This document shows positions 12,127 to 64,000 of a DNA stretch of 64,000 bases, piece after piece. Source of the DNA: Patescibacteria group bacterium UBA5147 (GTDB lineage Bacteria > Patescibacteriota > Saccharimonadia > UBA4664); contig DHXV01000001.1 of the NCBI GenBank assembly GCA_002415345.1, forward strand, positions 484,111 through 548,110, read 5' to 3'. A program made the translations under genes and the position numbers. Position 1 is the first letter of the stretch; the number at the start of each line of letters is the position of its first letter. Under the pieces are notes generated by a model, which worked only from the letters and a program-made list of their open reading frames with translations, searched no databases and was not told the origin of the DNA.

Positions 12127-12127
12127 C

Positions 12128-12625: not shown

Positions 12626-12717
12626 TTGAGTTCAAGTATAGGGTGGATAGGCGCTTTGAGGCAAACGCCCGAGGTCGGTGAGGCTGAACGCTGGTGCCTT
12701 ATGCTACAATATCGGCA

Positions 12718-14511: not shown

Positions 14512-14609
14512 GACAACGCATCCTGTTAGGTACCTAGTGATAATACCGAACATAGACCGAATGTCAAAGTTCCGCCATATTTTTTGCACTTTTTTGTTGT
14601 CAATGGTTA

Positions 14610-14647
14610 TTGACTTACTTACCTAACTAATCTATACTGCCCCCATG
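14610..14647 (+). promoter_or_regulatory. Sigma70-type promoter of the trmB-like gene, leaderless
   Basis: TTGACT, a 17-nt spacer, TATACT, then 6 nt to ATG 14645. Confidence 0.6.
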
Positions 14648-15433: not shown

Positions 15434-16006
15434 CCATTAGTGGTCATTTGGCAATTATAGTGTTGACTTAGAGTGTATAAGGTGTTAAGTTTGTTAGGCT
15501 TTGGTACCCGATGTGCCTTAGCCTGGCCTCGACTACTTCAGACGAGGGTTCAGTTCCAGCTAGGCAGTGCGTTAGGAGAAGGCGATGTCCACATGACTTC
15601 CATGCAGACACCAACTTCCGGATCCCTGCCAGAGAAGGTGTAGCTGATAGGCTCACCTCTGGTACAGGGACCCGGTCAATCAGTCTCCGTCGCCTCTGAC
15701 CGGGTCGCTCGGAGATAACCGGGGCAATGGTTTAGCGACCATAGTCCCAGCGGCGGCGTCGGCTCAGCTTGGCCTCGGTCGGTTGAGCCGGCACCGTTTG
15801 CATCCCACCTACAACATATTTATTTCATCGCAATCGCGGGAATAAATCGCACCTTGTACAACCGTTCATAACCATCCCACGGGATTCCATATCCCGAACC
15901 ATTCCCCAGTATCACCCTCAGTCTACGGACCAAGATGTGAACTGGGGTTTTCGCTTGTTCATTACCAAGCTCAGCTCTGATTAATGGTGTAGCAATTATC
16001 CGACAT

Positions 16007-16033
16007 CCCCTAAGTATGCTAGAAGGGGTTTTT
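16007..16033 (+). terminator. Intrinsic terminator (plus-strand oriented) overlapping the stop codon of the convergent GT4 gene
   Basis: CCCC-taagtatgctagaa-GGGG followed by TTTTT. Confidence 0.55.
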
Positions 16034-20707: not shown

Positions 20708-21520
20708 TTACAAACAAGAAACGTCGTAGTCGAGCGTGCCGGAGACGTATTGCGTAATGGTGACTTTGCCGCCAGATGTAAGAGGGGTTAGGGAGCAGTT
20801 TGATTGGGCCCCCGAGTGATTGCGGGCGCCGGGACGCCAATTGTTCAGGCCATTCAGGTTGCTGGTCGGGCTGACTGTTCCGACAATGGACTGCCACTGT
20901 GCGGTTGTCGAGTAGATGCCAGCGGTGGTTCCGATGGCTTCAAATTCGGCAATCATGCCCTCGAGGTCAGCTACGTTGCGTGCCTGTCCCCCTGTCGTAG
21001 TATCCCAGCTGTTGCCGGTCTCGACATCTAGCCACCAAGCGTAGGTGCTAGGGTCGGTAACTCCACGGTTGGTTGCGTCCTCGACGGCACGGTTCCAGCC
21101 ATACTGCCAAGCGCATGCCAAACTATTGCTGTGGTCGCAATCGCCATAAGGGTTTGCGGCCAAGTTACCTGAAGGGTCAACATTACTGGACGGCCAGGAG
21201 AGAGTGTTGAGCCCGCCAGGATTTGCAGTATTGACGTAGAGCTGAGCTTTTGGCTGAGCAGTTGCGCCAGTTGAACCCTGAGCCCAGGCTAGTTCAGCGC
21301 TGAGACAAGGATTGGTTGTGTTAGCGAGGCCATCATTGACGCCCACGATCCCAAACGCCTGGCCGGAGGGTAGGGTCTTGTTGCATTGCGGATAGGAGAC
21401 GTCATTACCAAGCAGGTAAGCTGTACCGCCGCCAGTAGGCCTAGCAGCTAGCGCTGGGCTGCCGACGATAGTGGCGGCTAGGGCGCCAATTAGTAGGGTT
21501 TGAGATAATCGCAATAACAT
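20708..21520 (-). CDS. Secreted protein with signal peptide; possible glycoside-hydrolase-like (GH25/Rv2525c-like) domain
   Basis: N-terminal signal peptide. The domain call is a weak recollection-based match on the DVSYPQC...GIVGVNDG segment. Cys-containing. Confidence 0.4.
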   Translation of the reverse strand: MLLRLSQTLLIGALAATIVGSPALAARPTGGGTAYLLGNDVSYPQCNKTLPSGQAFGIVGVNDGLANTTNPCLSAELAWAQGSTGATAQPKAQLYVNTANPGGLNTLSWPSSNVDPSGNLAANPYGDCDHSNSLACAWQYGWNRAVEDATNRGVTDPSTYAWWLDVETGNSWDTTTGGQARNVADLEGMIAEFEAIGTTAGIYSTTAQWQSIVGTVSPTSNLNGLNNWRPGARNHSGAQSNCSLTPLTSGGKVTITQYVSGTLDYDVSCL

Positions 21521-26660: not shown

Positions 26661-27467
26661 TTACGGGCAGAGATCAATTGTTCGGCAGCTGCCGGCAATG
26701 ATGGCCGAGTACCAGGTATCCCTGAATACCAGCCATTGCTTATCGCGGGTGGCTCGTTGCAGGTCGGCACCGGGATGCGCCAAATGGAAGCTGTTGAGCC
26801 GGTCGGTTTGGCGGAAGAAGTCGTCGATTGCGAACGAGTCCCCGTTGTCAAAACTGGCTTGCTGCAAGAAGAATGCAGCAAAGGTTCCGTTTTGGTAGGT
26901 GTGGAAAGCCGTATTGGTGTACTGCTGGTAGACCAGCTTGGAATCCGTCCACCAAACCAGAGCCGAAGTAGGGTCTGTGACTGCTCTGAATAGTTCATGC
27001 CCAGTGGGGTCCTTGTAACTGAAATTGCGCGGACCATTGTCAATCACCGTGCGGCAGAGGCTTTGGGACCGCCAGGCGGATCCGCTCCATCTGTACAAGC
27101 AACCACGACTGTTCCAGGCAAGCCTTCCCACAGCGATGCTGGGGAAATGCTTGGTGGGAGCCGCCTTCGGCGCCGCCGACGGGGCGGAAGGAGCAGGCGT
27201 TAACACCCTCGCCGTCGGCTTGGGCGTAGCTTTGGGCGTGACCTTGGGCTTGGGCGTGACCTTGGGTTTGGGGGTTGCCGTCGAAGTCGGAGCGGCAGTA
27301 GCTGGGCTAGTGGCTGCCGGAGCCGACGTAACAGTGGCGAACGGGTGCGGGTTGATGGTATGTCCGCTGCTCGCCTTTGGTGCATTATCCACGTGACAGG
27401 CGCTAAGAAGAACGCCAAGCACAGTAACAAACAACAGGCTCTTTACGAGCCGCTTGAACAGGGGCAT
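26661..27467 (-). CDS. Predicted lipoprotein with a Pro/Thr/Lys-rich repetitive linker and a C-terminal Trp/Cys-containing domain
   Basis: Signal peptide with LLSAC lipobox. Peptide repeats TPKPKVTPKPKVTPKATPKPT. Confidence 0.55.
   Translation of the reverse strand: MPLFKRLVKSLLFVTVLGVLLSACHVDNAPKASSGHTINPHPFATVTSAPAATSPATAAPTSTATPKPKVTPKPKVTPKATPKPTARVLTPAPSAPSAAPKAAPTKHFPSIAVGRLAWNSRGCLYRWSGSAWRSQSLCRTVIDNGPRNFSYKDPTGHELFRAVTDPTSALVWWTDSKLVYQQYTNTAFHTYQNGTFAAFFLQQASFDNGDSFAIDDFFRQTDRLNSFHLAHPGADLQRATRDKQWLVFRDTWYSAIIAGSCRTIDLCP
27215..27290. repeat. Imperfect tandem nucleotide repeats encoding the (TPKPKV)n linker
   Basis: gtgaccttgggcttgggc repeated units. Confidence 0.6.
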
Positions 27468-33047: not shown

Positions 33048-34625
33048 TTATTCGCCGACGGCCGTGTAGACCTCTTCGAGAGTGGTCTTGCCGGCCAGAA
33101 CCTTCCCAATGCCGTCTTGGAGCAGGGTTTCCATCCCGTCCTTGATGGCGGCCTGTTCGATAGCCTGGGTTGTGGTGGCGGCGCTGCTGCGGCTGATAAG
33201 CGCTTCCATGGCGGGGGTAACTACGAGTTGTTCCAGAATGCTGATGCGGCCCCGGAATCCGAACCGATGGCACTTGTCGCAGCCGACGGCTTTGTAGAGC
33301 TTGAGCGAATCATAGTTGGGCTGCGATACTTCCGGCAGGCCGCTCAGGGCCGTCTTAATTTCCAACAGCTCGTGTTTGTCGGGCTTATATGGTTTTTTGC
33401 AATCGTCGCAGAGCTGTCTGACCAGGCGCTGAGCCATGATCAGCCGGATGGAAGAGGCGAGCAGCGGGTTCTCCCCGATCATATCCATCAGCCTCGTTAC
33501 GGCGGCCGAGCTGGAAGAGGCGTGGAAGGTCGACAGGACCAGGTGCCCGGTCAGGGAGGCCTGTAAAGCGGTCTTGGCCGTATCGGCATCACGGATCTCG
33601 CCGATCATGATGATGTTGGGATCTTCCCGCAGCACGGCGCGGAGCTTCTCCATGAACATCTGTTGGTCCTCCGAGTGGACGGGAATCTGGGAAACGTCGT
33701 CCAGCTCGTATTCCACCGGGTCTTCCAGGGTGACGATTTTGACCTGATCGTTGTTGAGGTGGTTCAGGAGGGAATACAAGGTTGATGTTTTACCGGACCC
33801 GGTCGGGCCGACGGTTAGAACCATGCCGCGCGGGTGCGCGACGGCGCGGGATAGAGCTTCGGCTTGCTTGGGTGAAAGGTGCAAGTTATCCAGGTTCAAA
33901 TACTGCATACTCAGGTTGAATATCCGGATCACCACGTCCTGGCCATGGAGCGAAGGTATGGTCTCAAGGCGCATGTTGACGTCGATTTCGTCGCCCTCGG
34001 CGTTAATGGCGTGGATATTGATGCGCCCGCCCTGGGGGGTATCAGAGCCCCATTTGACCCCGGCCCGCATCTGCAGGTCGCTGGTGAACAAGTCGTAGCG
34101 GTCCTTGGGAATGGTGATGATGGGGTGCAGGGTGCCGTCCAGCCGGAACCGGATGCGCGCGTCATCCGCCGAGGGTTCGATATGGATGTCCGACGCCCCA
34201 AGCTGATAGGCGAGTTGGGCGACCGGTTCGAACATATATTTGGGCTCCAGGGTAGCAACCTGTTCGGCAAAGGCCTCAAAATCGCCCGATTCCAGTATGT
34301 CCTGGTTGGCCGCGATCGTGAATCGGTTAAAGATCCGCTGCCAGCCGATATCAGAGGTCAGGACGAAGGTCACCTCATATCCGCTGAGCCGCTGGCGCAG
34401 CGGCTCCAACAGGCTGCGGTTGGATTGGGAGTTGATGCCGATGAGCAGTTTGTTGTCCTCTATGGACACTGGCACGATGCCGTACGCCCGCATACCTTCG
34501 ACGGTGAGCTTGCCGATCAGCGGGGTGATATCGATTTTGGGCCGGGTATCAAAATAGCCTACGCTGAGCTGCTGGGCGAATTCCTGTGAGGCTGTTTCGA
34601 TTTGGTCGCGTTCTTGTGTTGTCAT
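33048..34625 (-). CDS. pilB: Type II/IV secretion ATPase GspE/PilB family (type IV pilus assembly ATPase)
   Basis: N-terminal GSPII-like domain. Walker A VGPTGSGKTST, Asp/His boxes and a tetra-Cys motif (CDDCKK...CDKC). Confidence 0.85.
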   Translation of the reverse strand: MTTQERDQIETASQEFAQQLSVGYFDTRPKIDITPLIGKLTVEGMRAYGIVPVSIEDNKLLIGINSQSNRSLLEPLRQRLSGYEVTFVLTSDIGWQRIFNRFTIAANQDILESGDFEAFAEQVATLEPKYMFEPVAQLAYQLGASDIHIEPSADDARIRFRLDGTLHPIITIPKDRYDLFTSDLQMRAGVKWGSDTPQGGRINIHAINAEGDEIDVNMRLETIPSLHGQDVVIRIFNLSMQYLNLDNLHLSPKQAEALSRAVAHPRGMVLTVGPTGSGKTSTLYSLLNHLNNDQVKIVTLEDPVEYELDDVSQIPVHSEDQQMFMEKLRAVLREDPNIIMIGEIRDADTAKTALQASLTGHLVLSTFHASSSSAAVTRLMDMIGENPLLASSIRLIMAQRLVRQLCDDCKKPYKPDKHELLEIKTALSGLPEVSQPNYDSLKLYKAVGCDKCHRFGFRGRISILEQLVVTPAMEALISRSSAATTTQAIEQAAIKDGMETLLQDGIGKVLAGKTTLEEVYTAVGE

Positions 34626-36844: not shown

Positions 36845-37747
36845 ATGACACGGACATCATCAGTAATCAGCACAACCGTTAAACTGGCATTTATGGCCGG
36901 CATAGTTGCGGCGGCGTTGAACTATCAGCAGCTGTTGGATCAGTATGCTTTGGCGACTTATCACCCGGCGCCCGATGTCGCCAGTATCGAGTCGCGGATA
37001 GGGCTAACGGACTACGCCCGCGGTGTTTTTTACCGTACCGACCCCCAGGTCGCATCAAAGTCCGCCTTCAACACCGACTGTGAAACCACTAGGGGTGAGC
37101 TGGAGCTGGGCTGTTATTACCGCAATAGTATCTATATCCTGCATATCGATAACCAAAGCTTGGCGCCCGAGATGGATGTCGTCACCGCGCACGAACTGCT
37201 GCATGCAGCCTGGGCGCGCCTGTCGTCGGATGAAAAGACCAAACTGACCTCCCAGCTGGAGCAGGCCTTTACAAGTCTGGCCGATGCCGATTTGCGTGAC
37301 CGGATGGCCCAGTACGCCCAGAGCGAGCCCGGACAACAAGCCAACGAGCTCCATTCCATTCTCGGCACCGAATACGTCACCCTGCCTCCGGAGCTCGAGG
37401 CCTATTATGCCCGTTACTTTACCAGCCGCGCTCAGATCGTCGCCGCCCATGAGAAGTATCAAACTGTCTTCACTACGCGAAAGGCGGAATTGGAAAATCA
37501 ACTGGCCACCATCCGCAATCTTAAAGCGCAACTTAACGTCGTAAACCGGCAGCTCGAGTCGTATCGATCCAGCGGAAATATTCCGGCATATAATTCGTTG
37601 GTTCCCAAACAAAACAGTTTGGTCGACGGCATTAATACGAGGATCGATAATTACCAATCCGGCGTCGACGAATACAACGCCTTGTCCAAGTCTTTGGACT
37701 CCCAGTTGATTACCGATACGGAAGCCGGAGTCGGCGCATCGCACTAG
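36845..37747 (+). CDS. Hypothetical HExxH (zincin-like) protein with a coiled-coil C-terminus
   Basis: VVTAHELLHAAW motif, an N-terminal TM, and a C-terminal heptad-like region. Confidence 0.4.
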   Translation: MTRTSSVISTTVKLAFMAGIVAAALNYQQLLDQYALATYHPAPDVASIESRIGLTDYARGVFYRTDPQVASKSAFNTDCETTRGELELGCYYRNSIYILHIDNQSLAPEMDVVTAHELLHAAWARLSSDEKTKLTSQLEQAFTSLADADLRDRMAQYAQSEPGQQANELHSILGTEYVTLPPELEAYYARYFTSRAQIVAAHEKYQTVFTTRKAELENQLATIRNLKAQLNVVNRQLESYRSSGNIPAYNSLVPKQNSLVDGINTRIDNYQSGVDEYNALSKSLDSQLITDTEAGVGASH

Positions 37748-40384: not shown

Positions 40385-42427
40385 TTACTCTGTTTTAAAG
40401 CTGACCAGCCGACCGTCCACCAAGGCATACCCGGTTTGGAGTGCGCTATCATAGGCGGCATCGTATACTTCCTTGGTGCCGTTGAACGCGTACTGGCGGA
40501 TGAACAACAGACCGCTGGCGGTTGACCAGGTGCCGACATGCTTGGTTGATGGGGATACGGCAATGATAGAGTTCCCATCGGCGGATAGCTTGAGGATAGT
40601 ACTGCCGGATAATCCCGGAGGAACAACGACAGTCGTCTTGAGTACTCCTGCCAAGTATTGGGTCAGCTCCTTGTCCTTGAGTGTGTAGACATTGCCGTCG
40701 ATGGCCATTGCTTTGGAGTCCGCCAGGGTACGCGACTGGGCCACGGACAAGTAAACGATCTTTGGAGAAAACCCACTTAATGTTTTGACATGCTTATATA
40801 TTCCGTCGGAGGAGAGGATGTATAAGTTGCCCACATACGAGGCGATGGCCGACCCGCTTTCCCATTGATTGAGAGCCACCGCTTGAGCCGTCAGGGAATC
40901 GTCGGAGAAGCGGTAATACCAAACGGACGGTTCAGATGTGAGGAGGTACATGCCCAGGTTGTCACTGGATAGCGTTGTAGCTACAACAGCGCCTAATTTA
41001 GAAGTGTCTGCTAGGCTTTTTTTGATAGATTTTGTAGTAATGTTAACAACATAAATCATGGAATCGTTGTTTTTATCGATGAGGTAGGCATGGCCGCCAG
41101 ATACCTCCATGTGGGTCGGGTTAGCATTCTTTTGGCTTGATAGAGATATTATCGTTGAGACTTCGACTCGGTTCAACCCATCGAAACGATCGGCCAAGTC
41201 GCTCATTTGGGCGATTAGCGCTTCAACGGTCGAAGGCTCGCCGGCACTGAGGGTTGCGTGCTTAAGCCGGGTATTAAGACGTGACTTATCGCGGCCTGAT
41301 AACCCCGATATATCTTGTTGGGCCTGCTGCAGACTGGACTTGGCCGACACTGCGTCGGAACTGATAGCCGCCGCCTCGTACGTCTTATAGGCAGCCTCAT
41401 ATCGGGTCAGCAGCTTGGCACTCGCCGCCGAATCCAATGATTGTGAGGCCAGGACACTGCCGACAGCCAGCAGGGTTATCATGACGATGGCGGTTACACG
41501 CCGCCGGCGGGTAGTCGACAGGCTGCTACGCAACGTACCGGCGGCCGCGTATCCGGCGTGCTGCAAGTGCGGCTTGGTCTTGTTCCATCCGGCTTTAGCG
41601 GTGCTGCCGACAAGCTTGGTTGAGGCGATGGTCGCATCTTTAATCGGCACGGCGGCAAAACGGGCAGCTTCCAAGGTGGTTTCAGGAGTTCCCAGCTGGA
41701 TTTCACTTGGTTCGTCGCTGCGTACCTGAAGTGCGGCCTGTTCCGGCGTGGTCAGACCGATTATAAGGGCGGCAACCCGTTCGGTCGAAGCGTCCTTTAG
41801 CAGGTCGGTCAGTTCATTGATTGCGCGGGTCGGACTGTTGGTTGAGACGACCTCCTGGAGCCGCTTCAGTGGCAGCTGGTGGAACAGGGCGGGAGTCGCG
41901 ATGAGCAAACGGTCATCATCCTCCAGATTGCCGCTGGCGATGGAGCCGAAAGTCTTGGCGGGCCCACCGCTGCGTTCGGACGGATGAGCGGTGATGCGGG
42001 TACCGGATTTGCCGCGGTAAAGATATGCCTCTGAGGAACCGGTATGGCTGATATGAAGCTCCGACTCGTGCTGGACGGCGATGACGGCGCTCAGTTTGCC
42101 TATCCAGGCGGCGTTGCCCTGATTTATGTACTCCAGAAGTTCTCGGTTGACTATCTTGGTGGCCGTCTCGAAACGCGATAGGGGGTCGGCCGCCTGATTC
42201 TCCTCGTTGTAATACTGCTGGCCGAAGGACTCGATGATAAGATCCGCCACTTCTTCACTCTGGCGGCCGCCGGCAACCACTTCGATAACGACATAAAAAT
42301 TGCCGTAGGCGGCGGCCCGTTCGTCGCTCAGGGGTTCATAGGCATAGGCAGTAACAAAACTCGGCACTTGCTTCGGCCGTTTGGCGTAGGGGACGAGCTT
42401 AGCTGTTCGGGTAATAAGGTCTGCCAA
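40385..42427 (-). CDS. Large membrane-anchored protein: N-terminal cytoplasmic PP2C/SpoIIE-like domain (tentative), one TM, and an extracytoplasmic beta-rich region
   Basis: 680 aa with a central TM (VTAIVMITLLAVGSVLA). The N-terminal about 250 aa has Asp-rich motifs reminiscent of PPM phosphatases. Confidence 0.45.
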   Translation of the reverse strand: MADLITRTAKLVPYAKRPKQVPSFVTAYAYEPLSDERAAAYGNFYVVIEVVAGGRQSEEVADLIIESFGQQYYNEENQAADPLSRFETATKIVNRELLEYINQGNAAWIGKLSAVIAVQHESELHISHTGSSEAYLYRGKSGTRITAHPSERSGGPAKTFGSIASGNLEDDDRLLIATPALFHQLPLKRLQEVVSTNSPTRAINELTDLLKDASTERVAALIIGLTTPEQAALQVRSDEPSEIQLGTPETTLEAARFAAVPIKDATIASTKLVGSTAKAGWNKTKPHLQHAGYAAAGTLRSSLSTTRRRRVTAIVMITLLAVGSVLASQSLDSAASAKLLTRYEAAYKTYEAAAISSDAVSAKSSLQQAQQDISGLSGRDKSRLNTRLKHATLSAGEPSTVEALIAQMSDLADRFDGLNRVEVSTIISLSSQKNANPTHMEVSGGHAYLIDKNNDSMIYVVNITTKSIKKSLADTSKLGAVVATTLSSDNLGMYLLTSEPSVWYYRFSDDSLTAQAVALNQWESGSAIASYVGNLYILSSDGIYKHVKTLSGFSPKIVYLSVAQSRTLADSKAMAIDGNVYTLKDKELTQYLAGVLKTTVVVPPGLSGSTILKLSADGNSIIAVSPSTKHVGTWSTASGLLFIRQYAFNGTKEVYDAAYDSALQTGYALVDGRLVSFKTE

Positions 42428-42506: not shown

Positions 42507-45425
42507 ATGGATATCACCCAAGCCCTTAATCAGCAGCAGAAAACCGCCGTGGAGCATGTTGATGGGCCTCAGTTGGTCGTTGCCGGGGCCGGCACGGGCA
42601 AGACTGCCGTCATTACCCAGCGGATAGCGAATTTGATTGCTCGGGGGAATGCCAAACCCACGCAAATTCTGGCCCTCACTTTCACGGAGAAGGCGGCACG
42701 GGAAATGGCCGACCGGTTGTACAGTCTGATAGGCTGGCAATCATTCAGTGTCGCAGTCATGACGTTCAATGCCTTCGGAAGTGCGGTCTTGAGTGAGTAT
42801 GCGGGGCATATTGGACGGAGCACCCGTGGTGGATTAATCAACGATACGCAAAAAGCGTTGTTCCTACAACAACGGTTTCACGAACTTGACCTGAAATATT
42901 ATGGCCTGCACAGCGATGTATTTGAATTCATGACAAAAATAGTCGGTTATATCGGCCGGTTGCAGAATGCAGGCATCACAACGGAGAAGTACCGCAGCTA
43001 CGTTGACGGGCTCGCGACCGACCCGGGAGAGCTGCATGCCACCGACGTATTGGAGCAACAGGATCTGGCCGCCATTTATGAGTTATATGAGACGATAAAA
43101 CGCGACACGGCTACCTTTGACTATTACGACCAATTGGCGCTGCCCCTGCATATATTGCAGGAGCGGCCGAACATCGCGGCGCGGCTGTCGTCCCGGTACA
43201 AGTTCGTCTTGGTTGATGAATATCAGGACACTAGCCCCGTTCAGGATGCACTGCTAAGGTGCATGGTACCACCGGATGGCAATCTGTTCGCGGTCGGCGA
43301 TGACGATCAAGCGATATACGGCTTTCGCGGGGCGGACATCGCCAACATCCTGCGCTTCACCGAGCACTTCAACGTGGAACGCCCGCTGGCGCTGATTCAG
43401 AACTACCGTAGCGGCCAGCCGATTCTGGACGCCGCTTATCGCCTGATCAAGGGCAATGACCCGGAGCGGCTTGAGGCCAAGCTGCATATCGACAAGCGGC
43501 TTATCGCCCAAACACCGGAGGCGACGGTGTTATTTCGGCCCTACGGTTCGCCGGCAGAGGAACAAACTGGCGTGGTGGGGGATATTGCGGCACGTATCGC
43601 CTCGGGCCAAAAGCCTGGCCAGCTGGCGGTTCTGGCACGTAGCAATGCTACCCTGCGGACCTATGCCAAGGCCCTGCGCGGCCGTGATGTGCCCTTTGCC
43701 ATCTCGACGGAGGTCAATATCTTTGAACAGCGCGAACTCATCAACCTGTGGTATCTCATGGAATGGATTGGTCACCGGGCTAGTGAAGAGGCCATCGCTC
43801 ACGTTGTGATGGGTCCGTTTGTCGGCTGGAAGGCCGCGAAGTGGCGGGAGGTTGTCGAGCAATCGGCCGCCGACCTATCATCCAGCGAGTCAACGCTGCG
43901 CTCACTGGCAGCGGCGGGTGACGAGGCCGCCGCCGGACTGCTGGCCAAGCTTGATACTTGGCGGGAATGGAGCGCCGCCGACAATGTCAGCAAGCTTGCC
44001 TACAACCTGGTCTTTGAACCGACCGCCGACGAGCGGACTTTGGCCGGGCGGCTGCAGGACTTGGCGAAAGCCTCCGAGGAAACGGGCAGCGAAGTTCGTG
44101 TCATGAGGGTCTTTGACGACCTGGCCCGCTTTTACGGCCAGATCGAAGATTACGTTATGGTGCAGGAACTGGCCGGTGGCGACCAATCGCTGGCCGGATA
44201 CCTAGTTCGCTTTCCTAAGCCGCCCACGTTGGAGGTGTCCGAGACCCTCGGCGACGAGGACGGGGTACAACTGCTGACGGTGCACGCCTCGAAGGGCCTG
44301 GAATTCGATACGGTGTACGTGGTTAACTCGACCGCCAAGTCATGGAGCGAGCCGCCCGGTATGGGCGGGCTGGAAGTGCCGGCCGAACTGACCTCCGGTG
44401 TCGACTTGCCGCCGGCGCATGAGCAGCGCCGCCTGATGTATGTTGCGGTTACCCGCGCCCGTAAAGAGCTCCTGTTGAGCGCACCCGTGGCTTCGCCAGG
44501 CGGTCAGCGCCAGGCGGTCAGCCCGCTTATCGAGGAGTTGCTGGGGCAGGCGCCCGATCTGGCCATTGACCGCCCTGAGGTCGACAAAGCCGACAAAATG
44601 ATGCAAAAATTACAACGATTTTACCCTCTGAAAACCGAATTGCCGGACCGATTGCCCTTTGAACGGGCCGATGGCTGGATTGAATTGGGGGTGGGCGCCC
44701 TGGAACGCTACGATACGAACCCTCACGACTTTTACCTGCAGAACGTGCTGAAAATCAGCCAACCATTCGGGCCGCAGCTGGCGTTCGGGTCGGCGATTCA
44801 CGGGACCATCCAAATGTTTTACGACGGCCAGCTCCACAGTGAAGCGGTCACGGTGGACGAGCTGTTGGCCCGGCTCGGTGAACTTTGGAGCGACCGCGGT
44901 TACGACAGCCGCGCGCAGGCAGACCTGGCACGCCGTCGTGCCGACGATACAATCCGTCGTTTCGTTGTACGCGAATCTACAACCGAGCGAACCATACGCT
45001 CCAGCGAGCAACCCATCACCTTGGAAATACCCGAGGCCAAGCTGCGGCTGCGCGGCCGGATGGATGCCACCTTTGGCGTCGGCGACGGCCTGGAAGTCCG
45101 CGATTTCAAAACCGGCTCCCTGCATGATGCCGAGAAGCTGGCCGAAAAAGCCAAGAAAAGCTTCCAATTGCGCACCTACGCCCTGGCCGTACAGGCGCTC
45201 ACCGGCACGGCGCCGGATTCAGTTACCCTGGACTACGTTGTTACGGGCGTTGAGGGCACCGCCAAACTGACACCGGCAATCCTCAAGAACCATCACGCCA
45301 AGCTTATAGACTTAGCCGCCCGCCTGCGCGCCCGCGACTTCGCCCCCAGAGCCCCGTCTGCCTTCAACCAGCCCGCCGCCTACAAGTACTACGGCAGCGA
45401 AGACGACGGAGACAGCGCGCTATGA
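42507..45425 (+). CDS. UvrD/PcrA-family helicase fused to a C-terminal PD-(D/E)xK (RecB-like) nuclease
   Basis: Walker A AGAGTGKT, motif II VLVDEYQDTS, and C-terminal GRMDA...EVRDFKTG. Confidence 0.85.
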   Translation: MDITQALNQQQKTAVEHVDGPQLVVAGAGTGKTAVITQRIANLIARGNAKPTQILALTFTEKAAREMADRLYSLIGWQSFSVAVMTFNAFGSAVLSEYAGHIGRSTRGGLINDTQKALFLQQRFHELDLKYYGLHSDVFEFMTKIVGYIGRLQNAGITTEKYRSYVDGLATDPGELHATDVLEQQDLAAIYELYETIKRDTATFDYYDQLALPLHILQERPNIAARLSSRYKFVLVDEYQDTSPVQDALLRCMVPPDGNLFAVGDDDQAIYGFRGADIANILRFTEHFNVERPLALIQNYRSGQPILDAAYRLIKGNDPERLEAKLHIDKRLIAQTPEATVLFRPYGSPAEEQTGVVGDIAARIASGQKPGQLAVLARSNATLRTYAKALRGRDVPFAISTEVNIFEQRELINLWYLMEWIGHRASEEAIAHVVMGPFVGWKAAKWREVVEQSAADLSSSESTLRSLAAAGDEAAAGLLAKLDTWREWSAADNVSKLAYNLVFEPTADERTLAGRLQDLAKASEETGSEVRVMRVFDDLARFYGQIEDYVMVQELAGGDQSLAGYLVRFPKPPTLEVSETLGDEDGVQLLTVHASKGLEFDTVYVVNSTAKSWSEPPGMGGLEVPAELTSGVDLPPAHEQRRLMYVAVTRARKELLLSAPVASPGGQRQAVSPLIEELLGQAPDLAIDRPEVDKADKMMQKLQRFYPLKTELPDRLPFERADGWIELGVGALERYDTNPHDFYLQNVLKISQPFGPQLAFGSAIHGTIQMFYDGQLHSEAVTVDELLARLGELWSDRGYDSRAQADLARRRADDTIRRFVVRESTTERTIRSSEQPITLEIPEAKLRLRGRMDATFGVGDGLEVRDFKTGSLHDAEKLAEKAKKSFQLRTYALAVQALTGTAPDSVTLDYVVTGVEGTAKLTPAILKNHHAKLIDLAARLRARDFAPRAPSAFNQPAAYKYYGSEDDGDSAL

Positions 45426-45907
45426 TCCGCGACGAAGCCTGGCTGCAGCAGCTGCTCGACGATACCTGGGATGAGCACTTCAGCGACGTGCTGCAGGAGA
45501 ATGACGTGCGGATAGTCTATGGCCGACGGGCGAAGCGCCGCCTGGGCAGCATCTCGCTGGATCCGAACGACCGGTCAACCAGCATCATCACCATGAACGG
45601 AATCTTCAAAGACGAGCGCATTCCGGAATTCGTGGTGGTGGCGACACTGGTACATGAGCTGACCCACTACGCCCACGGATTTAACTCGCCGCTGGCCCAG
45701 GCACAGACCCACCCCCACGCCGGAGGCGTTATGAGGCGGGAATACGACGAGCGCGGCCTCCTGCAGCTGTATCTGGACCAGAAAAAGTGGCTCAAGCTCA
45801 ACTGGCCGGAAGTAGTGGCCCGCGAATTCGCTCCGCGCCGGCGGACTTCTCCCGGGGTAGCGCGGATCGTCAAAGTCCCGAAGCCGTTCTGGTACATCGG
45901 CAGCTAA
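45422..45907 (+). CDS. SprT-like / DUF45-type HExxH zinc metallopeptidase-like protein
   Basis: HELTHYAH motif. ATGA overlap with the helicase gene. Confidence 0.55.
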   Translation: MIRDEAWLQQLLDDTWDEHFSDVLQENDVRIVYGRRAKRRLGSISLDPNDRSTSIITMNGIFKDERIPEFVVVATLVHELTHYAHGFNSPLAQAQTHPHAGGVMRREYDERGLLQLYLDQKKWLKLNWPEVVAREFAPRRRTSPGVARIVKVPKPFWYIGS

Positions 45908-45953: not shown

Positions 45954-46029
45954 CGGGGTGTGGCGCAGTTGGTAGCGTGCTGTGTTCGGAACGCAGAGGT
46001 CGCAGGTTCAAGTCCTGTCACCCCGACCA
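45954..46029 (+). tRNA. tRNA-Pro (anticodon CGG)
   Basis: Same acceptor and T-arms as the GGG isoacceptor. Anticodon loop TTCGGAA. CCA encoded. Confidence 0.88.
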
Positions 46030-56130: not shown

Positions 56131-59010
56131 ATGAGGGTTTCCACGTCTTGGATTAAAGAATGGCTATGTCGCACAATGTCTGATAAAGATATTGTTCAGG
56201 CAATGGAGCAGGCCGGTATCGAAGTTGAACAATATATTGCGTCAACGCAGCTAGACAAAAAAGTTGTTGTAGGGCTGGTTAAAAAAGTTATTCAACATCC
56301 CGGAGCGGATAGGCTGCATATCGTTGACGTCACGACCGGCGAGACTGAACTATCGATAGTCTGCGGTGCGCCGAATGTTCGAGCAGGTTTGAAAGTGGCG
56401 GTCGCCCAGGTTGGGTCCACTCTTCCGGACGGTACGGTAATTAAAAAGTCCAAACTGAGAGGCGAGGTGAGTGAGGGGATGCTTTGCAGCGCCAGCGAGC
56501 TGGGATTGGGCAACGATCACGACGGCTTGATTGAGCTCGACGAGGAAGCGGGACTCGGGACATCATTGTGCGACATGTACGAAAACCACGGCATCGTGGA
56601 CGTGAAGACGGCTGCCAACCGGTCTGATTTGCAGTCGGTTGTCGGTTTGAGCCGCGAAGTCGCGGCAATCGCCAATATCGATCTAAAGGATATGGTGGAA
56701 GCGGCAGAATCTAAAGGCAGTGGCCCGGCCGTCGAGATTGAGGCCTCCCCCTCTTTGGTCAGCCAGTTGGTGTTGGCAGAGTTTAAGCTGGGGGCGTCCG
56801 GTAAGATTGACCCCAAGTTGCTACAACTTATGGCCGAGCGTTTGCGGGCTAGCGGGATACGTCCGATTTCCCCTGTCGTTGACGTGACGAATTACGTCAT
56901 GCTGGAGTACGGCCAGCCATTGCACGCTTATGATGCGGATAAGGTTACTTTGCCGCTGGGCTCAAGGCTCGCCAAGGCCGGCGAAACCCTGGTGACACTT
57001 GATGGCGTAAAGTGTGTCTTAACCGTCGATGATCTGGTAATAACCGATAAGACCGGCGTAATCGGCCTGGCGGGAGTCATGGGCGGCGCCCAAACCGAAA
57101 TTACGGCCGGCACGAACCGGATATATCTGGAAGCGGCAACTTTTGACGGCGGTCGAATAAGGAAGACCGCTAAACGGTTCGGGCTCAGAAGCGAGGCCAG
57201 CGCCAGGTTTGAACGCGGGCTTCCGGTGCAGTTGGCTCCGCTGGGCTTGGCTCGGGCGGCTGAGCTGTTGAACCGTGCGGCCGGGGCCGAACTCCAGGGC
57301 GGCGTTACTGATGTGCTGAGGATTTGGCCGTGGACGCAACGAATCGGCTTGAAGATACCGGTACTCAATCAGCTGTTGGGCTACGAGCTGACCGCCAAAG
57401 AAGCCTGCCAGGCTCTGTCCCGGTTTGGCATTTCGGCAGTACCCTTTGACATCGCCCGTGAGGCGCGGAGCCACTTGGGAAAGCCCTACGTCTGGGGCGC
57501 ATCATTTAAGAAGAACGGCACAAACGACTTTGATTGCAGTTATTTTACCGACTACCTCTATTCTCTTATCGGCCTGCGTATCGGTTATACTTCGTTGGCT
57601 CAATTCGAAATTGGAACGCCGGTTGAGGTGGATGATCTGAAGCCCGGTGATATTTTGTTCTACAATGGTCATCACGACCATGTATCCAAAGATTATGGCT
57701 TGTCAGAGGTACAAAACGGCGATCAGCACCACTCGATCGAGGGTTATTACTTCCTGTGGAGCGACGCCGACAACAAGTACGTCAGGGTGGAAAGCAAGCT
57801 CGGCCAACATGTCGGGCATAACGGTTTGTACGTGGGCGACGGACGCGTGGTGCATGCCGTGAAAATGGAGGCTGACGGCGAGACATGGCGGGAGCGCGAG
57901 GCAACCGGTGTCGTTGAAGAAGACGTTGAAACCTTCACGAAAAATGCCGGCTTCCTAGGAGCCCGCCGCTTTGATGACAATCTTGATACATATGTCTCAG
58001 TCGCCGCAGTTCCCTGGTGGCGGACCGATCTGAAGCTGGCCGTGGACTTGGTAGAGGAGATTGTCCGGGTCCTTGGGTATGACCGGGTGCCATCAACGAT
58101 CCCGGTTTGGCGTCCTACTACCCTGAAGTTTGACAAGACCCACCGACTCAACAGCCGTGTTAAGAATCTGCTCAGCGGCGCCGGATTGTTTGAAATTATG
58201 ACATATTCGTTCGTGGGCGAAGACCAGCTGGCAGCGGTTGGTTTGAAGCCCGAAAATCACTTGAAGCTGCAGAACCCGCTGTCGAGCGAGCAGGCGTTCT
58301 TGCGCACTTCGTTGCTGCCGAGTCACCTGCAGGTATTGGTCCGCAATCGCACCTATGCCAAAGCCATTGGCTTTTACGAATTGAGCAAGGTGTTTGTTCC
58401 GGTCGAGGGCGACGGACAACCCGACGAGCCCCTACGGCTGGCGATCTTGGTCGCCCGCCCCCAAGACTCGTACCGTCATCTCAAAGGCCTGCTGGACGCA
58501 CTGAATTTGGAATTTAACGTAGCATTTGCGCTCACCCCCGTTGACGAACCCAATGCTTTTGCCCCCGGGCGTGTCGCTCAAATCAGCTTGGCAAAGAAGG
58601 TCATCGGCACCGTCGGGCAGCTTAATCCGGCCCTTCTGAGAGCCAACAAAATAGGCGGCGAAGCCGCCTATTTGGAACTCGATATCGAGCCGATTCTGGC
58701 GGCGGCTGCCCCTAAGAAGTTCGCCGGCCTCAACCGCTTCCCCGGTACGAGCCGTGACATTTCTTTTGTTGCCGGCAGCGATGTCAGCTGGTCGGAGGTA
58801 TTGGCAGCGCTCAAAGGTTTGCATCATGCAACCGTCACTTACGTGGGTGAATATGCCGGAGCAAACGTGCCCGTTGGAAATCGTAGCCTGAGCTTGCGTC
58901 TGACTCTGAGCTATCCCGACCGTACGCCAACCGAGGAAGAGGCCGGGCGGATGGAAGCTCAAGCCTGGTCCGTGTTGGAACGAAAATTCGGTATCAAGCC
59001 TAACCTGTGA
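56131..59010 (+). CDS. pheT: Phenylalanine--tRNA ligase beta subunit carrying an NlpC/P60-like domain insertion (about 57451-57975) inside the B5 region
   Basis: N-terminal MRVSTSWIKEWL, tRNA-binding OB (EGMLCSASELGL), B5 halves (SRFGISAVPFD ... AAVPWWRTDLKLAVDLVEEIVRVLGYDRVP), and a C-terminal FDX-ACB. The insert has GKPYVWGA...FDCSYF...PGDILFY...HVGHNGLYVGDGRVVHA. Confidence 0.85.
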   Translation: MRVSTSWIKEWLCRTMSDKDIVQAMEQAGIEVEQYIASTQLDKKVVVGLVKKVIQHPGADRLHIVDVTTGETELSIVCGAPNVRAGLKVAVAQVGSTLPDGTVIKKSKLRGEVSEGMLCSASELGLGNDHDGLIELDEEAGLGTSLCDMYENHGIVDVKTAANRSDLQSVVGLSREVAAIANIDLKDMVEAAESKGSGPAVEIEASPSLVSQLVLAEFKLGASGKIDPKLLQLMAERLRASGIRPISPVVDVTNYVMLEYGQPLHAYDADKVTLPLGSRLAKAGETLVTLDGVKCVLTVDDLVITDKTGVIGLAGVMGGAQTEITAGTNRIYLEAATFDGGRIRKTAKRFGLRSEASARFERGLPVQLAPLGLARAAELLNRAAGAELQGGVTDVLRIWPWTQRIGLKIPVLNQLLGYELTAKEACQALSRFGISAVPFDIAREARSHLGKPYVWGASFKKNGTNDFDCSYFTDYLYSLIGLRIGYTSLAQFEIGTPVEVDDLKPGDILFYNGHHDHVSKDYGLSEVQNGDQHHSIEGYYFLWSDADNKYVRVESKLGQHVGHNGLYVGDGRVVHAVKMEADGETWREREATGVVEEDVETFTKNAGFLGARRFDDNLDTYVSVAAVPWWRTDLKLAVDLVEEIVRVLGYDRVPSTIPVWRPTTLKFDKTHRLNSRVKNLLSGAGLFEIMTYSFVGEDQLAAVGLKPENHLKLQNPLSSEQAFLRTSLLPSHLQVLVRNRTYAKAIGFYELSKVFVPVEGDGQPDEPLRLAILVARPQDSYRHLKGLLDALNLEFNVAFALTPVDEPNAFAPGRVAQISLAKKVIGTVGQLNPALLRANKIGGEAAYLELDIEPILAAAAPKKFAGLNRFPGTSRDISFVAGSDVSWSEVLAALKGLHHATVTYVGEYAGANVPVGNRSLSLRLTLSYPDRTPTEEEAGRMEAQAWSVLERKFGIKPNL

Positions 59011-60509: not shown

Positions 60510-60565
60510 ACGTTAGCAGTTTTATTACCAAGCTTTGAGCACAAGTGGTATAATTTAAGGTAATT

Positions 60566-60970: not shown

Positions 60971-60999
60971 ACAAATTCGCGTGGTCGGAGGGTGTTAAA

Positions 61000-63900
61000 G
61001 TGAACGGAATTCTGGTCGTAGTCATGGTCTTCCTGCTGCTTGCAGCGAGTCTCGGCGTGGTCGCGTACCTGGTGTACCAGCGGAAGTTGAGACGTGCCAA
61101 GGCCATTGAGCGCGGCCTGAAAATGGTACCCATCCAAATCCACTTGCCGCCGCCCAGCGCCGATACGGTCGCGGGCAGCCGTGACATCCGCGACGTGATG
61201 CGCGAAAAGACCGCTCAGGCCGAAGTTCTTTATAACCTACTCGCCGGGACTGCCAGCGAAGGCTTTAAGAGTAAGTTTTATGGCCAGCGGCATATCGCTC
61301 TGGAAATCGTGGCCTCCGACGGCCTGGTCCATTTTTACGCGGCAGTGCCAGTGGCGATGGTGAGCGTGGTTGAAAAGTCGATTCAGACCGCCTACCCCGG
61401 TGCCCTGCTCGAGGAGGTTGAGGATCATAATATTTTCAACCAGGAAGGTCGACTGGCCGCCACGATGGGCGGGGAGATTGTCCTGAAAGCCGACAGTTCA
61501 TACCCGATTTCAACTTACGAGGAGCTCGACCGGGATCCCCTGGAAGCAATAATTACGACTCTCTCCAGCATGGGCAAGGACGATGGTGCGGCCATTCAGG
61601 TGATGGTGCGTCCGGCGACGTCCGGTTGGGTGAAGCGCTCGACCAGCCTAGTCGAGCACCTGCGCAAGGGCAAGAGCAAGGGCTTGGGCTTTAATGCCAT
61701 GGACGTCGCGCGCGCGGTCGTTACTCCCCCTACTACCGCCGCCGCGGACGCTGCCAAACAGGCCCCCGGACAATCCCTGACGAACTTGCAGCTAGGTACA
61801 ATCGAACGCATTGAAAACAAGACCAAACAGCCAGGTTTCGAAGTGCTCGTGCGGCTGGTGGTATCGACCCAGACCGTGGCGACGTCGCAGCAGTTGTTGC
61901 GGGATCTGGCCACCGCTTTCGCGCTGTTTGAAGCACCAGGTCTGAACGGGTTTAAATTTTTGCCGGCCATCGACGTTCAAGGGCTGGTAACGGCTTTTAT
62001 CCTGAGGTTTTTCCCCCCCGAGATGCATTCGAGCATTTTAAACAGCGCGGAACTGGCGACTTTGTTCCACTTGCCGGATTCCCAGTTCGTACCCACGGCC
62101 AACGTCGAACGCCAGGCCTCCAAGGAAGTTGACGGTCCGGTCAGCCTGCCATCAAGCGGGCTGCTCTTCGGCTTTAATGAGTTTCGCGGGGTCAAGAAAG
62201 AAATCCGCCTGAGCACCGAAGACCGGCGCCGTCACACCTATGTTTTGGGGCAGACAGGGACGGGTAAGTCGACATTGCTGGAGAATCTGGCCGTCCAGGA
62301 CATGCTCGCTGGCAACGGCTTCGCTTTTATTGACCCTCACGGCGATACCGCCGAGAAGTTGCTCAGTCTGGTGCCCAAGGAACGGGCCGAAGACGTCATT
62401 TATTTTAATCCGGCCGATACCGAGTACCCGTTGGGCCTCAACTTGTTTGAGTTTAACGATCCGGCACAAAAGGACTTCCTGATCCAGGAAACCATCAGCA
62501 TGCTCTATAAGCTGTACGACCCCAACGGTACCGGCGTCATCGGTCCCCGGTTCGAGCAATGGTACCGAAACGCGGCTCTGACGCTGATGAGCGACCCTGC
62601 GGGGGCCACCTTCCTGGAAATTCCCAAGGTCTTTACCGATACTGAGTATCTGAAGCAGAAGTTCCGCTATTTGAAGGACCCGACCGTAATTGATTTCTGG
62701 ACCAAGGAAATGGGCCAGACCAGCGATTATCACAAAAGTGAGATGCTGGGGTATTTCGTGAGCAAGTTCGGCGCCTTCCAGCAGAATGAGATCATGCGCA
62801 ATATCATTGGTCAGACCAAGAGTGCCTTCGACCTACGCGATATCATGGACAATAAGAAAATTCTCATCGTTAACTTGAGTAAGGGCCAGATTGGTGAGCT
62901 CAACTCCAAATTGCTTGGTATGATGTTCGTCATCAAGTTCCAGGCCGCCGCCATGAGCCGGGCCGACATGCCGGAGGCGGACCGTACAGATTTCTCCCTG
63001 TACGTGGATGAGTTTCAAAACTTCTCGACCGACAGTTTCGCCAGCATTCTCAGTGAGGCGCGCAAGTATCGTCTCAACCTCATCGTCGCCAACCAGTTCA
63101 TCGGCCAGCTCACGAACGAGATTCGCGACGCGGTGTTCGGCAACATCGGGACGATTCTCGGCATGCGCATGGGACCAGAGGACGCTGAATTCATGGTCAA
63201 GCAATTCACCCCGATCTTTGACGCCAGAGATCTAGTGAACCTGCCTAATGGTCATGCGGCCATCCGGATGATGCTGGGTGGAGTGCCGAGCCAACCCTTT
63301 ACCATCCGTGGGCTGCCGCCGCTAAGTACGACTAATCCCGAATTGGGGCTGGCTATCAAGCAATTGAGCGCGGCCAAATTCGGTGCCTCGAAGGCGGTTA
63401 TAGAGGCTGATATCACCGCCCGACTGTCGGGCCGCATGGCATCCGTTGCGCCGCCTGCCCCTGTGGAACCGGCGCCCGCCACGGTCGCGATTCCAGTCAC
63501 TCTGCCGACTGATCCGGTTAACGTCTCGGCTCCGGCGGTCACCCCTGCGGTTATGTCTCAGCCGTCCGCCCCGGCTCCTGCACCCGCGGTAGAAGTCCCG
63601 ATGCCGACTGAGCCTCAGCAGGTTGCCCCCGCCGCCGCGTTTATCACGAGCCCGCCACCCATTGGCGCACCCCCGGTCGATGGGCTTTCGGCCCCGGCGC
63701 CGGTTGAGCAGATTGCACCTCAGGCCGCGCCCCCCATGGTACCGGTCGCACCTATTATCCCCGAACCTACCGATGAGCCCATGTCTCGAGCGGACGTACA
63801 GCCGGCGGCGGCATCCGAGCCGGGCGGCCTTTCAATTACCGACATTACGGGTGGGCGTAAGCTCCCGACCGCTCCGGCCTCTCCGCCCGCGGTAGGTATC

Positions 63901-64000
63901 CCGCCTATCGGTGCCCCTCCCATTGATCTGCCCTTTGCTCCGTCACCGGTGCTATCGGTCAATGAAGCTCCTGGGCAACAGTTACAAGCTCCGGCAACTG
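61000..64000 (+). CDS. Membrane-anchored P-loop ATPase of the type IV coupling protein (VirD4/TraD/TraG-D_C-like) family with a long Pro/Ala-rich C-terminal tail; 3' end outside window
   Basis: Hand translation gives an uninterrupted frame from GTG 61000 (GGAGGG RBS) to the window end. It is absent from the ORF track because there is no stop. N-terminal TM, Walker A GQTGTGKST, Walker B LYVDEFQNF, and an LIVANQFIGQL TraG-D_C-like motif. Confidence 0.6.
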   Translation, partial: MNGILVVVMVFLLLAASLGVVAYLVYQRKLRRAKAIERGLKMVPIQIHLPPPSADTVAGSRDIRDVMREKTAQAEVLYNLLAGTASEGFKSKFYGQRHIALEIVASDGLVHFYAAVPVAMVSVVEKSIQTAYPGALLEEVEDHNIFNQEGRLAATMGGEIVLKADSSYPISTYEELDRDPLEAIITTLSSMGKDDGAAIQVMVRPATSGWVKRSTSLVEHLRKGKSKGLGFNAMDVARAVVTPPTTAAADAAKQAPGQSLTNLQLGTIERIENKTKQPGFEVLVRLVVSTQTVATSQQLLRDLATAFALFEAPGLNGFKFLPAIDVQGLVTAFILRFFPPEMHSSILNSAELATLFHLPDSQFVPTANVERQASKEVDGPVSLPSSGLLFGFNEFRGVKKEIRLSTEDRRRHTYVLGQTGTGKSTLLENLAVQDMLAGNGFAFIDPHGDTAEKLLSLVPKERAEDVIYFNPADTEYPLGLNLFEFNDPAQKDFLIQETISMLYKLYDPNGTGVIGPRFEQWYRNAALTLMSDPAGATFLEIPKVFTDTEYLKQKFRYLKDPTVIDFWTKEMGQTSDYHKSEMLGYFVSKFGAFQQNEIMRNIIGQTKSAFDLRDIMDNKKILIVNLSKGQIGELNSKLLGMMFVIKFQAAAMSRADMPEADRTDFSLYVDEFQNFSTDSFASILSEARKYRLNLIVANQFIGQLTNEIRDAVFGNIGTILGMRMGPEDAEFMVKQFTPIFDARDLVNLPNGHAAIRMMLGGVPSQPFTIRGLPPLSTTNPELGLAIKQLSAAKFGASKAVIEADITARLSGRMASVAPPAPVEPAPATVAIPVTLPTDPVNVSAPAVTPAVMSQPSAPAPAPAVEVPMPTEPQQVAPAAAFITSPPPIGAPPVDGLSAPAPVEQIAPQAAPPMVPVAPIIPEPTDEPMSRADVQPAAASEPGGLSITDITGGRKLPTAPASPPAVGIPPIGAPPIDLPFAPSPVLSVNEAPGQQLQAPAT

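Follow-up and report, generated by a model that had tools for sequence, protein, structure and literature searches.

Coupling proteins of type IV secretion systems (T4SS), such as TrwB, VirD4 and TraD, usually have two transmembrane helices. The C-terminal extensions of DotL and of F-plasmid TraD recruit adaptors or relaxosome proteins, and FtsK, a membrane-anchored ring translocase of the same superfamily, carries a long Pro-rich low-complexity segment as the linker between its membrane domain and its motor. Patescibacteria make up a very large share of bacterial diversity and depend on host cells in ways that are poorly understood; in one of them, Southlakia epibionticum, the T4SS is essential and is reported to be without recognisable coupling and relaxase proteins (PMC10633639). 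Here we describe a gene at the end of a 64,000-nt stretch of Patescibacteria group bacterium UBA5147 (GenBank assembly GCA_002415345.1, contig DHXV01000001.1, positions 484,111 to 548,110 of the forward strand; 'the window' in the following), which encodes a membrane-anchored ATPase of the DUF8128 family. It is well supported that this protein belongs to the VirB4/VirD4 branch of the FtsK-HerA pumping ATPases and that its gene is a fixed part of the chromosome throughout Patescibacteria.

The ATPase consists of one transmembrane helix, a VirB4-like N-domain, a VirD4-like motor with an all-alpha insertion, and an acidic tail. With TrwB, VirD4 and TraD (R388 TrwB, PDB 1e9r/1gki) it shares the N-terminal anchor, the Walker A and B, RK and Q motifs and the all-alpha insertion. 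It differs from them in its single transmembrane helix, in the extra 330-aa domain between anchor and ATPase, whose fold seems to be VirB4-like, and in an apparently disordered acidic tail of 1061 aa; moreover, its gene is accompanied by neither a T4SS nor a relaxase and is a core chromosomal gene whose ortholog is essential. With VirB4/TrwK (R388, PDB 7o43, 8rtd) it has in common the two-domain plan in about 800 aa and, judging from predicted models, the fold of the N-domain, while its motor is nearer to the coupling proteins by sequence and VirB3, VirB6 and VirB8 do not adjoin it. DotL (IcmO of the Legionella Dot/Icm system, PDB 6sz9) matches the core in both sequence and fold. Unlike in FtsK, the low-complexity stretch comes after the motor, there is a single transmembrane helix and no folded C-terminal domain is evident; ftsK is annotated as a separate gene in TM7x (Saccharibacteria). 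As to the HerA helicases, the core has a short DUF87 match just above the cut-off, and the modelled N-domain matches VirB4 and not a HerA barrel.

Domain architecture of the DUF8128 ATPase

The + strand frame that begins at GTG 61000 runs for 1000 codons without a stop to the end of the window (base 64000). The other five frames contain 14-58 stops each across the same 3 kb, and the stretch is hence not a chance open reading frame (ORF); it was missing from the ORF list only because no stop lies within the window. Homologs begin at the same residue (MNGIL...). The ORF directly upstream (Table 1) is 100% identical to a database entry, and this entry led to contigs L087, L088 and L089 of three assemblies (one from ENA and two from JGI), which show 0 mismatches to the window over 13,435 nt and all reach past its end to the stop of the gene. 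On L087 the full gene occupies 10435-16020 and encodes 1861 aa, the final residues being ...KLAKGEVFVDERGNVIVGE. There is no frameshift, the window carries 54% of the gene, and the base composition of the gene is like that of the rest of the window. The initial annotation had proposed an uninterrupted frame with a GGAGGG ribosome-binding site, an N-terminal transmembrane helix, the Walker A, FIDPHGD, Walker B and ANQFIGQL motifs, and a stop somewhere beyond the window; all of these are borne out by direct reading of the sequence, with the stop following codon 1861 on the three identical contigs.

The core of the protein is VirD4/TrwB-like in sequence and in fold. A family profile was aligned by hhalign to R388 TrwB over aa 401-701 (probability 96.9%, E 1.8e-10), and a profile of 63 members searched against the PDB retrieved TrwB (1.1e-8) and DotL (1e-6). 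Among 49 diverse members, TrwB_AAD_bind (PF10412) and TraG-D_C (PF12696) were matched by 46 each and T4SS-DNA_transf by 26. The catalytic residues are invariant across the 63 sequences, and Walker A, Walker B and the RK motif are invariant in the family. In the AlphaFold2 (AF2) model that includes the core (mean predicted local distance difference test, pLDDT, 87.7; predicted template modelling score, pTM, 0.76), a RecA-like domain is interrupted by a purely helical insertion between Walker A and Walker B. Foldseek aligned the model to TrwB over ~430 columns with a template modelling score (TM) of 0.60 (TrwB-normalised), and also to Cag-beta, DotL and HerA. The TrwB alignment spans the helical insertion, which in the model would thus correspond to the all-alpha domain of the coupling proteins. 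The VirD4/TraD-like assignment made initially is therefore right for the core.

Searches with hidden Markov models (HMM) for type IV coupling protein (T4CP), TraG-D_C, DUF87 and HerA families, which had been suggested along with it, place the family as a whole with the T4CPs, but not the window protein by itself. The latter stays below the curated cut-offs for PF10412 (18.0 vs 20.5) and PF12696 (16.8 vs 22), and likewise for the TraD and CD1115 VirD4-like models of NCBIfam (TIGR03743, 39.6 vs 366; NF045973, 30.9 vs 250), while it is just above the cut-off for DUF87 over aa 409-496 only (25.1 bits vs 23.2). FtsK_SpoIIIE (PF01580) is marginal in 7 of the 49 members and not found in the window protein.

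Between the anchor and the core lies the 330-aa N-domain, which had escaped the initial annotation. It corresponds to Pfam DUF8128 (PF26449); this match is precomputed for the identical 1861-aa product of L087 and for nearly all homologs. The AF2 model of the N-domain alone (pLDDT 89.3, pTM 0.86) was matched by Foldseek to 14 PDB chains with E-values from 8.9e-7 to 4e-4, and every one of these is TrwK/VirB4. The similarity is moderate (TM 0.42-0.48), and the next PDB match (E 3e-3) is unrelated. Other RecA-type ATPases were not matched by the N-domain, which suggests that the match concerns the VirB4-specific N-terminal part. Moreover, the full-length model ranked VirB4/TrwK first (E 2.2e-15) and above TrwB, because ~860 columns were aligned. 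These matches come from one method applied to predicted models, in which the fold of the N-domain appears to resemble the N-terminal domain of VirB4.

The protein hence has the two-domain plan of VirB4, yet its motor domain is of the coupling-protein type by sequence. For instance, the family profile was aligned to R388 TrwK/VirB4 with a probability of only 8.5% and in the C-domain only, the VirB4 signature TIGR00929 reaches 15 bits against a cut-off of 643 in the window protein, and none of the 49 DUF8128 family members matches the VirB4 Pfam families such as CagE_TrbE_VirB. The single helix is followed by a basic stretch, and by the positive-inside rule the bulk of the ATPase is likely to be cytoplasmic.

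Beyond the conserved KQLSAAKFG (aa 787-795) comes a tail of 1061 aa, of which Pro accounts for 19%, Ala for 14% and Glu for 11%. Its net charge is -127 and it has just 12 aromatic residues; in the last 200 residues within the window, Pro and Ala make up 24% and 19%. The earlier description of this tail as Pro/Ala-rich and unusual for a coupling protein holds, but the tail, of which more than 200 residues had been noted, is far longer than that. No folded C-terminal domain is evident in the sequence of the tail. Its length is 780-1240 aa in relatives with 73-90% core identity and 150-600 aa in other Saccharimonadia, a few of which are tail-less (812-839 aa in total), while the proteins of other classes end 16-40 residues past the core. 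Although the length varies so much, about eight short islands recur in an unchanged order in ten close relatives, namely PPIGAPP[VI]D (1-3 copies), LS[IV]xDITGG, [LY]IHFVDP, QIDDLL, KVIQPLE, LPxAESL..DVAKAR, TGKLIMP and the terminal KLxxGEV[YF]VDxxGNVI[IV]GE. The full 1861-aa protein holds all of them, with two PPIGAPP copies and LSITDITGG inside the window. At LS[IV]xDITGG the tail alignment mis-registers the rows of the window protein and of P0121; both sequences carry the motif.

The terminal peptide (GEVFVDxxGNV) is kept across Saccharimonadia and was not found on other proteins by HMM search or motif search. Its acquisition by fusion with a ~208-aa protein that is encoded downstream in other classes was considered, and HMM and motif searches were negative; nor were tandem repeats found in the DNA as an origin of the repeated PPIGAPP. 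The composition of the tail and its islands suggest a disordered tether with short binding motifs. The tails of DotL and TraD are far shorter than those of this family, which are in addition polyanionic and Pro-rich, with lengths of 150-1240 aa, about eight islands and a conserved terminal peptide. If disordered as it appears, this would be a striking, very long tether whose short motifs keep a set order, inside a cell that measures only a few hundred nanometres across.

Table 1. Features of the ATPase gene and its upstream region in the window (positions in the 64,000-nt stretch; aa, residues of the ATPase)
Feature	Position	Strand	Basis or remark
Promoter-like site: TTACCA, 18 nt spacer, TG-TATAAT	60525..60554	+	between the YkuD stop and the small ORF
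Small partner ORF, 134 aa	60566..60970	+	N-terminal part disordered, P/Q/A-rich
Ribosome-binding site GGAGGG	60987..60992	+	7 nt 5' of GTG 61000; sequence reading
DUF8128 / T4CP-like membrane ATPase gene, first 1000 of 1861 codons	61000..64000	+	runs off the window
Single N-terminal transmembrane helix (hydrophobic, aa 4-26), then basic QRKLRRAK	61009..61077	+	sequence; AF2 helix over aa 2-40
N-domain, Pfam DUF8128, aa ~41-370, alpha/beta, disordered loop 226-256	61120..62109	+	AF2, Foldseek
T4CP-type nucleotide-binding domain, aa ~385-795	62152..63384	+	hhalign, PDB profile search, Foldseek
Walker A GQTGTGKST, aa 417-425	62248-62274	+	sequence
FIDPHGD, aa 443-449	62326-62346	+	sequence
All-alpha insertion, aa 488-617, between Walker A and Walker B	62461..62850	+	AF2 secondary structure: helices only
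Walker B LYVDEFQNF, aa 667-675	62998-63024	+	sequence
SEARKYRL	63052-63075	+	sequence
ANQFIGQL, aa 697-704	63088-63111	+	sequence
Start of Pro/Ala-rich acidic tail, aa 800-1000	63397..64000	+	composition; continues to aa 1861
Tail island PPIGAPPVD, copy 1	63655..63681	+	motif 1-3 times in tails of close relatives
Tail island LSITDITGG	63829..63855	+	LS[IV]xDITGG kept in most close relatives
Tail island PPIGAPPID, copy 2	63901..63927	+	aligned in 10 of 10 relatives

Ortholog, relatives and gene neighbourhood

By synteny and size, SEML1_0142 of S. epibionticum is the positional ortholog of the window ATPase, and SEML1_0141 that of the small ORF upstream. A complete oral Saccharibacteria genome (L025) serves as the bridge: it encodes an ATPase with 53% identity to the window protein, in a gene of exactly 3060 bp, and has the same gene order and near-equal gene sizes as SEML1_0141-0146. 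The SEML1_0142 locus is arranged like ours, with a 139-aa ORF, the ATPase, an opposite-strand 193-aa ORF and surface-protein gene, gyrB and gyrA. The SEML1_0142 product has its P-loop domain at residues 381-800 and a total of 1019 aa, the tail being only ~220 aa against 1061 aa here.

In the transposon data of Wang et al. 2023 (Table S1, PMC10633639), SEML1_0142 (3060 bp, + strand) is scored ES/ES/ES, with 114 insertions in the input DNA vs 11, 11 and 9 at T0, T1 and T2, and has a score of 1 both as core family and as Patescibacteria-enriched. SEML1_0141 (420 bp, + strand) is GD/ES/ES with 0 insertions at T0-T2, whereas SEML1_0143 (582 bp, - strand) and SEML1_0144 (1608 bp, - strand, DUF11) are NE; SEML1_0145 and SEML1_0146 are gyrB and gyrA (PMC10633639). 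SEML1_0142 is among only 61 class I essential genes, a class that is enriched for information processing and includes most type IV pilus genes. The essentiality of the ortholog had been missed initially, and SEML1_0142 is not discussed in its own paper, where the sole annotation given for it is 'TraM recognition domain-containing protein' (PMC10633639). Our literature search found no indexed paper that mentions DUF8128 or SEML1_0142.

A second S. epibionticum protein, SEML1_0293, is similar in architecture and overall size, with its ATPase domain at ~361-795, and is likewise encoded away from the T4SS. Unlike the essential SEML1_0142 family, it has clear Pfam T4CP matches (PF10412, 3e-15) and is NE/NE/NE. 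It is evidently the non-essential 't4cp homologue' of Quinonero-Coronel et al. (PMC12102498). The statement there that the T4CP homologue is non-essential fits SEML1_0293 only, and the essential SEML1_0142 seems to have been overlooked. Neither gene context nor Pfam singled out the Saccharimonadia paralog among L058, L067, L080 and L083.

The family is large and broadly distributed among Patescibacteria. A word-indexed search returned more than 5853 homologs, the best of them 60-79% identical; those with names are mostly from Candidatus Saccharimonadia or other Patescibacteria, and some are named conjugative DNA transfer proteins. An exhaustive search of 50%-identity representatives gave 22,060 matches at E <= 1e-3 and 5634 at E <= 1e-30. 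Species-representative genomes yielded at least 600 matching stretches, and the spread among classes was taken from 80 loci. Full-length homologs with ~40% identity are found there in Berkel-, Davies-, Curtiss-, Woese-, Levy-, Doudna-, Uhr-, Magasanik-, Falkow-, Peregrini- and Staskawiczbacteria and in Paceibacterota, the counts outside Saccharimonadia pooling orthologs and paralogs. Clustering by identity tracks the Patescibacteria classes, as would be expected under vertical inheritance. In an independent survey of 3035 Patescibacteria genomes, 5713 VirD4-type homologs were reported from 2918 genomes, with only 148 near virB4, and VirB4 itself from 2417; coupling-protein genes often lie apart from virB4, and relaxases are rare, with 109 in total (Quinonero-Coronel et al. 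2025, PMC12102498).

Several public records of metagenome-assembled genomes that carry the ATPase gene (L044, L048, L059, L070, L071 and others; L076; L053; L024; L017) are titled Gammaproteobacteria, Bathyarchaeia, Methylomirabilota, Sulfotelmatobacter or Pristimantibacillus. In our clustering, L044-L076 fall with Woese-, Levy-, Davies- and Curtissbacteria, L024 and L017 with Saccharimonadia, and L053 with a third group (Uhr-, Magasanik-, Falkow-, Berkelbacteria and others). The taxonomy given in these records is probably mistaken.

Three relatives, P0249, P0240 and P0212 (L091 614-3478), have an ATPase domain 43-46% identical to ours behind other N-termini: TPR repeats in P0249 and P0240, and a response-regulator receiver domain in P0212. 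P0249 (JGI 3300072015) is encoded between cas6 and a csx1-like gene (Cas_NE0113), near RT-cas1 and cas2, which suggests a CRISPR-associated T4CP-like ATPase in a type III-like CRISPR locus.

Around the gene of the window the order is trpS, pheS, pheT, a YkuD transpeptidase, the small ORF, the ATPase, a convergent 186-aa ORF, a 497-aa PKD protein and gyrB, and the same order is found in relatives that are 90%, 73% and 62% identical. Among Saccharimonadia loci the two convergent downstream genes are present in 25-26 and gyrB in 32. The ATPase is encoded by a core chromosomal gene among housekeeping genes and no part of a transfer island, a point on which the initial annotation was silent. In other classes the neighbours differ: a 120-200-aa ORF almost always abuts the ATPase gene upstream, and dnaX and ribonucleotide reductase genes are frequent neighbours. 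In addition, 11 loci outside Saccharimonadia (L044-L085; e.g. L076 10473-11342, - strand) have a convergent XerC/D-like tyrosine recombinase within ~300 nt, and 11 others a same-strand ~208-aa ORF without Pfam match directly downstream (e.g. L062 10559-11200, + strand).

The small ORF is found in 34 Saccharimonadia loci on the same strand as the ATPase gene and at a median of 7 nt upstream of it. The conserved part is the C-terminal ~50 aa (DEDLIEPEWVDK...NPYAEEEAIEDLQVDYLQKRYG), and its 128 database homologs are all short, unnamed and without a Pfam domain. Homology to the small upstream ORFs of the other classes was considered and was not evident (hhalign probability <= 0.2%); the position is conserved. 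The promoter-like site, which has 10 of 12 consensus matches and an extended -10 in a consensus scan, could drive a two-gene operon of small ORF and ATPase.

A link with a pilB gene at 33-34.6 kb, also suggested initially, finds no support. The gene (33048-34625, - strand) encodes a lone T2SSE ATPase with an MshEN domain, 26 kb away and without pilus assembly genes alongside; it lies between a trehalase/alpha-amylase/ROK-kinase cluster and genes for a protein O-mannosyltransferase (PMT) and a CHAP-domain protein.

Possible roles of the ATPase

Since VirB4, VirD4, FtsK and HerA are ring-shaped pumping ATPases, we infer a ring that moves a polymer. Most likely the protein works as a translocase, a hexamer that engages its substrate, and it may be the coupling ATPase missing from the Patescibacteria T4SS. 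The ring would sit on the cytoplasmic face of the membrane and use ATP to drive nucleic acid or unfolded protein either into an envelope channel or out of one; the likeliest candidate for this channel would be the essential chromosomal T4SS, whose own cluster has no recognised coupling protein. The VirB4-like N-domain may dock the ATPase to the T4SS, the tail may bring in partners or cargo on a flexible tether, in the manner of the DotL and TraD tails, and the small upstream protein could be an obligate cofactor. We regard the T4SS-coupling role as quite possible, although it falls somewhat short of probable. It is favoured because both halves of the protein come from families of T4SS motors, because the T4SS cluster is without a coupling protein, because the T4SS and the ATPase gene are both essential, and because genes of coupling proteins often lie apart from virB4.

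Several observations weigh against such a role. The likeness of the N-domain to VirB4 is structural only and, at TM 0.42-0.48, not close; hhalign detects no sequence homology with either the N- or the C-half of TrwK (probability <= 0.2%). No T4SS family was found by Pfam scans among 36 ORFs scanned in the window, and VirB3, VirB4, VirB6, VirB8, pilin and relaxase genes were not found next to the ATPase gene in the window, in its extension or in the annotated loci of relatives; the check for VirB4, VirB6 or pilin homologs nearby, which had been suggested initially, was thus negative. The family is wider-spread than the T4SS (2918 vs 2417 genomes), most T4SS genes of S. epibionticum are class II while SEML1_0142 is class I, and the receiver and TPR fusions together with the CRISPR locus indicate that members of this clade also work without a T4SS. 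Furthermore, the tail lies outside the core function, because some Saccharimonadia and all other classes are without it.

Much of this would suit a housekeeping translocase independent of the T4SS, which could handle the cell's own or imported nucleic acid at the membrane, or take up host RNA or DNA by another route, with the acidic tail as a regulator or a nucleic-acid mimic. We consider this doubtful, but it has to be taken seriously: the family is close to universal and more widely distributed than VirB4, class I essentiality is shared with replication and transcription genes, and proteins related in the ATPase domain function in the absence of a T4SS. A 2026 preprint reports that host RNA enters a cultivated Patescibacterium by an unknown route, which makes an import role conceivable. 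The fixed chromosomal place among pheST and gyrBA, and the XerC/D-like recombinase, dnaX and ribonucleotide reductase neighbours in other classes, point in the same direction, but synteny with DNA genes may be mere inherited gene order. On the other side, both halves belong to families otherwise tied to T4SS-type machines, a separate ftsK is annotated in TM7x, comEC-dependent DNA uptake is dispensable in S. epibionticum, and one transmembrane helix per subunit would be unlikely to form a channel alone. Very unlikely, in our view, is an ATPase for envelope or surface assembly that exports or anchors surface proteins together with its neighbours (YkuD, the ~190-aa membrane protein and the PKD/DUF11 protein). 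The convergent downstream pair does recur in Saccharimonadia loci and is present past the end of this window, and the surface protein carries PKD, CLIPPER or DUF11 domains of adhesin type; these two genes are, however, on the opposite strand and non-essential in S. epibionticum, where the ATPase is essential, YkuD is absent from the L003 and L025 loci, and none of these neighbours is kept in other Patescibacteria classes. An origin of the gene as the remnant of some conjugative element, or a function in defence as a HerA- or mad8-type ATPase, seems extremely improbable. The best PADLOC match is mad8 (64.5 bits), followed by weaker HerA matches, which reflect only the shared ATPase fold. The TPR-fused relative in the CRISPR locus and the naming of some homologs in the source databases as conjugative DNA transfer proteins could be taken as hints, but the gene is core, essential in the ortholog and inherited along class lines, its base composition does not stand out in the window, relaxases are rare in these genomes, and no relaxase, integrase, defence partner or nurA was found near it in the annotated loci or the extension.

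Returning to the T4SS-coupling role, a bolder version of it is quite unlikely as a whole. The ATPase could be an overlooked, essential second motor of the host-interaction apparatus; with its VirB4-like docking domain retained, it would stand as a living intermediate between VirB4 and VirD4, and it would pull host RNA or DNA in or push effectors out, the tail acting as a tether for cargo or partners or as a gate that mimics nucleic acid. The protein is already catalogued, as DUF8128 and as 'TraM recognition domain-containing protein', and Patescibacteria T4CP homologs have been counted before. Within the literature searched, three points seem to be new: the VirB4-like fold of the N-domain, the identity of the essential S. 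epibionticum gene with this paralog, and the giant acidic tail with its motifs. The DUF8128 ATPase is hence a concrete candidate for the missing T4SS motor or for a new essential translocase, and the combination of a VirB4-like N-domain with a VirD4-like motor bears on the relationship between VirB4 and VirD4.

Other features of the window

Seven ORFs of 161-680 aa have no Pfam match at E <= 1e-3 (907-1611, 5036-5956, 36845-37747 and 45422-45907 on the + strand; 20708-21520, 26661-27467 and 40385-42427 on the - strand), the largest of which (680 aa) adjoins argS. The 161-aa ORF, which has no family, follows a gene at 42507-45425 (+ strand) for a 972-aa fusion of a UvrD-type helicase and a PD-(D/E)XK nuclease (AddA/AddB-like). 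Genes for tRNAs are limited in the 64 kb to two for tRNA-Pro, at 4490-4565 and 45954-46029 (both + strand), with the anticodons GGG and CGG.

PheT, the beta subunit of phenylalanyl-tRNA synthetase (56131-59010, + strand), contains an NlpC/P60 domain (Pfam 4e-12) inserted at aa ~432-520 (nt ~57424-57690), between B3_4 and B5. L001, L005 and L087 share this insertion, whereas the 779-aa PheT of L003 is without it. It keeps a catalytic-looking cysteine (FDCSY) and histidines (HNGLYVGDG..VVHA), and the occurrence of this peptidoglycan-endopeptidase or cell-wall hydrolase fold within a cytoplasmic synthetase is odd.

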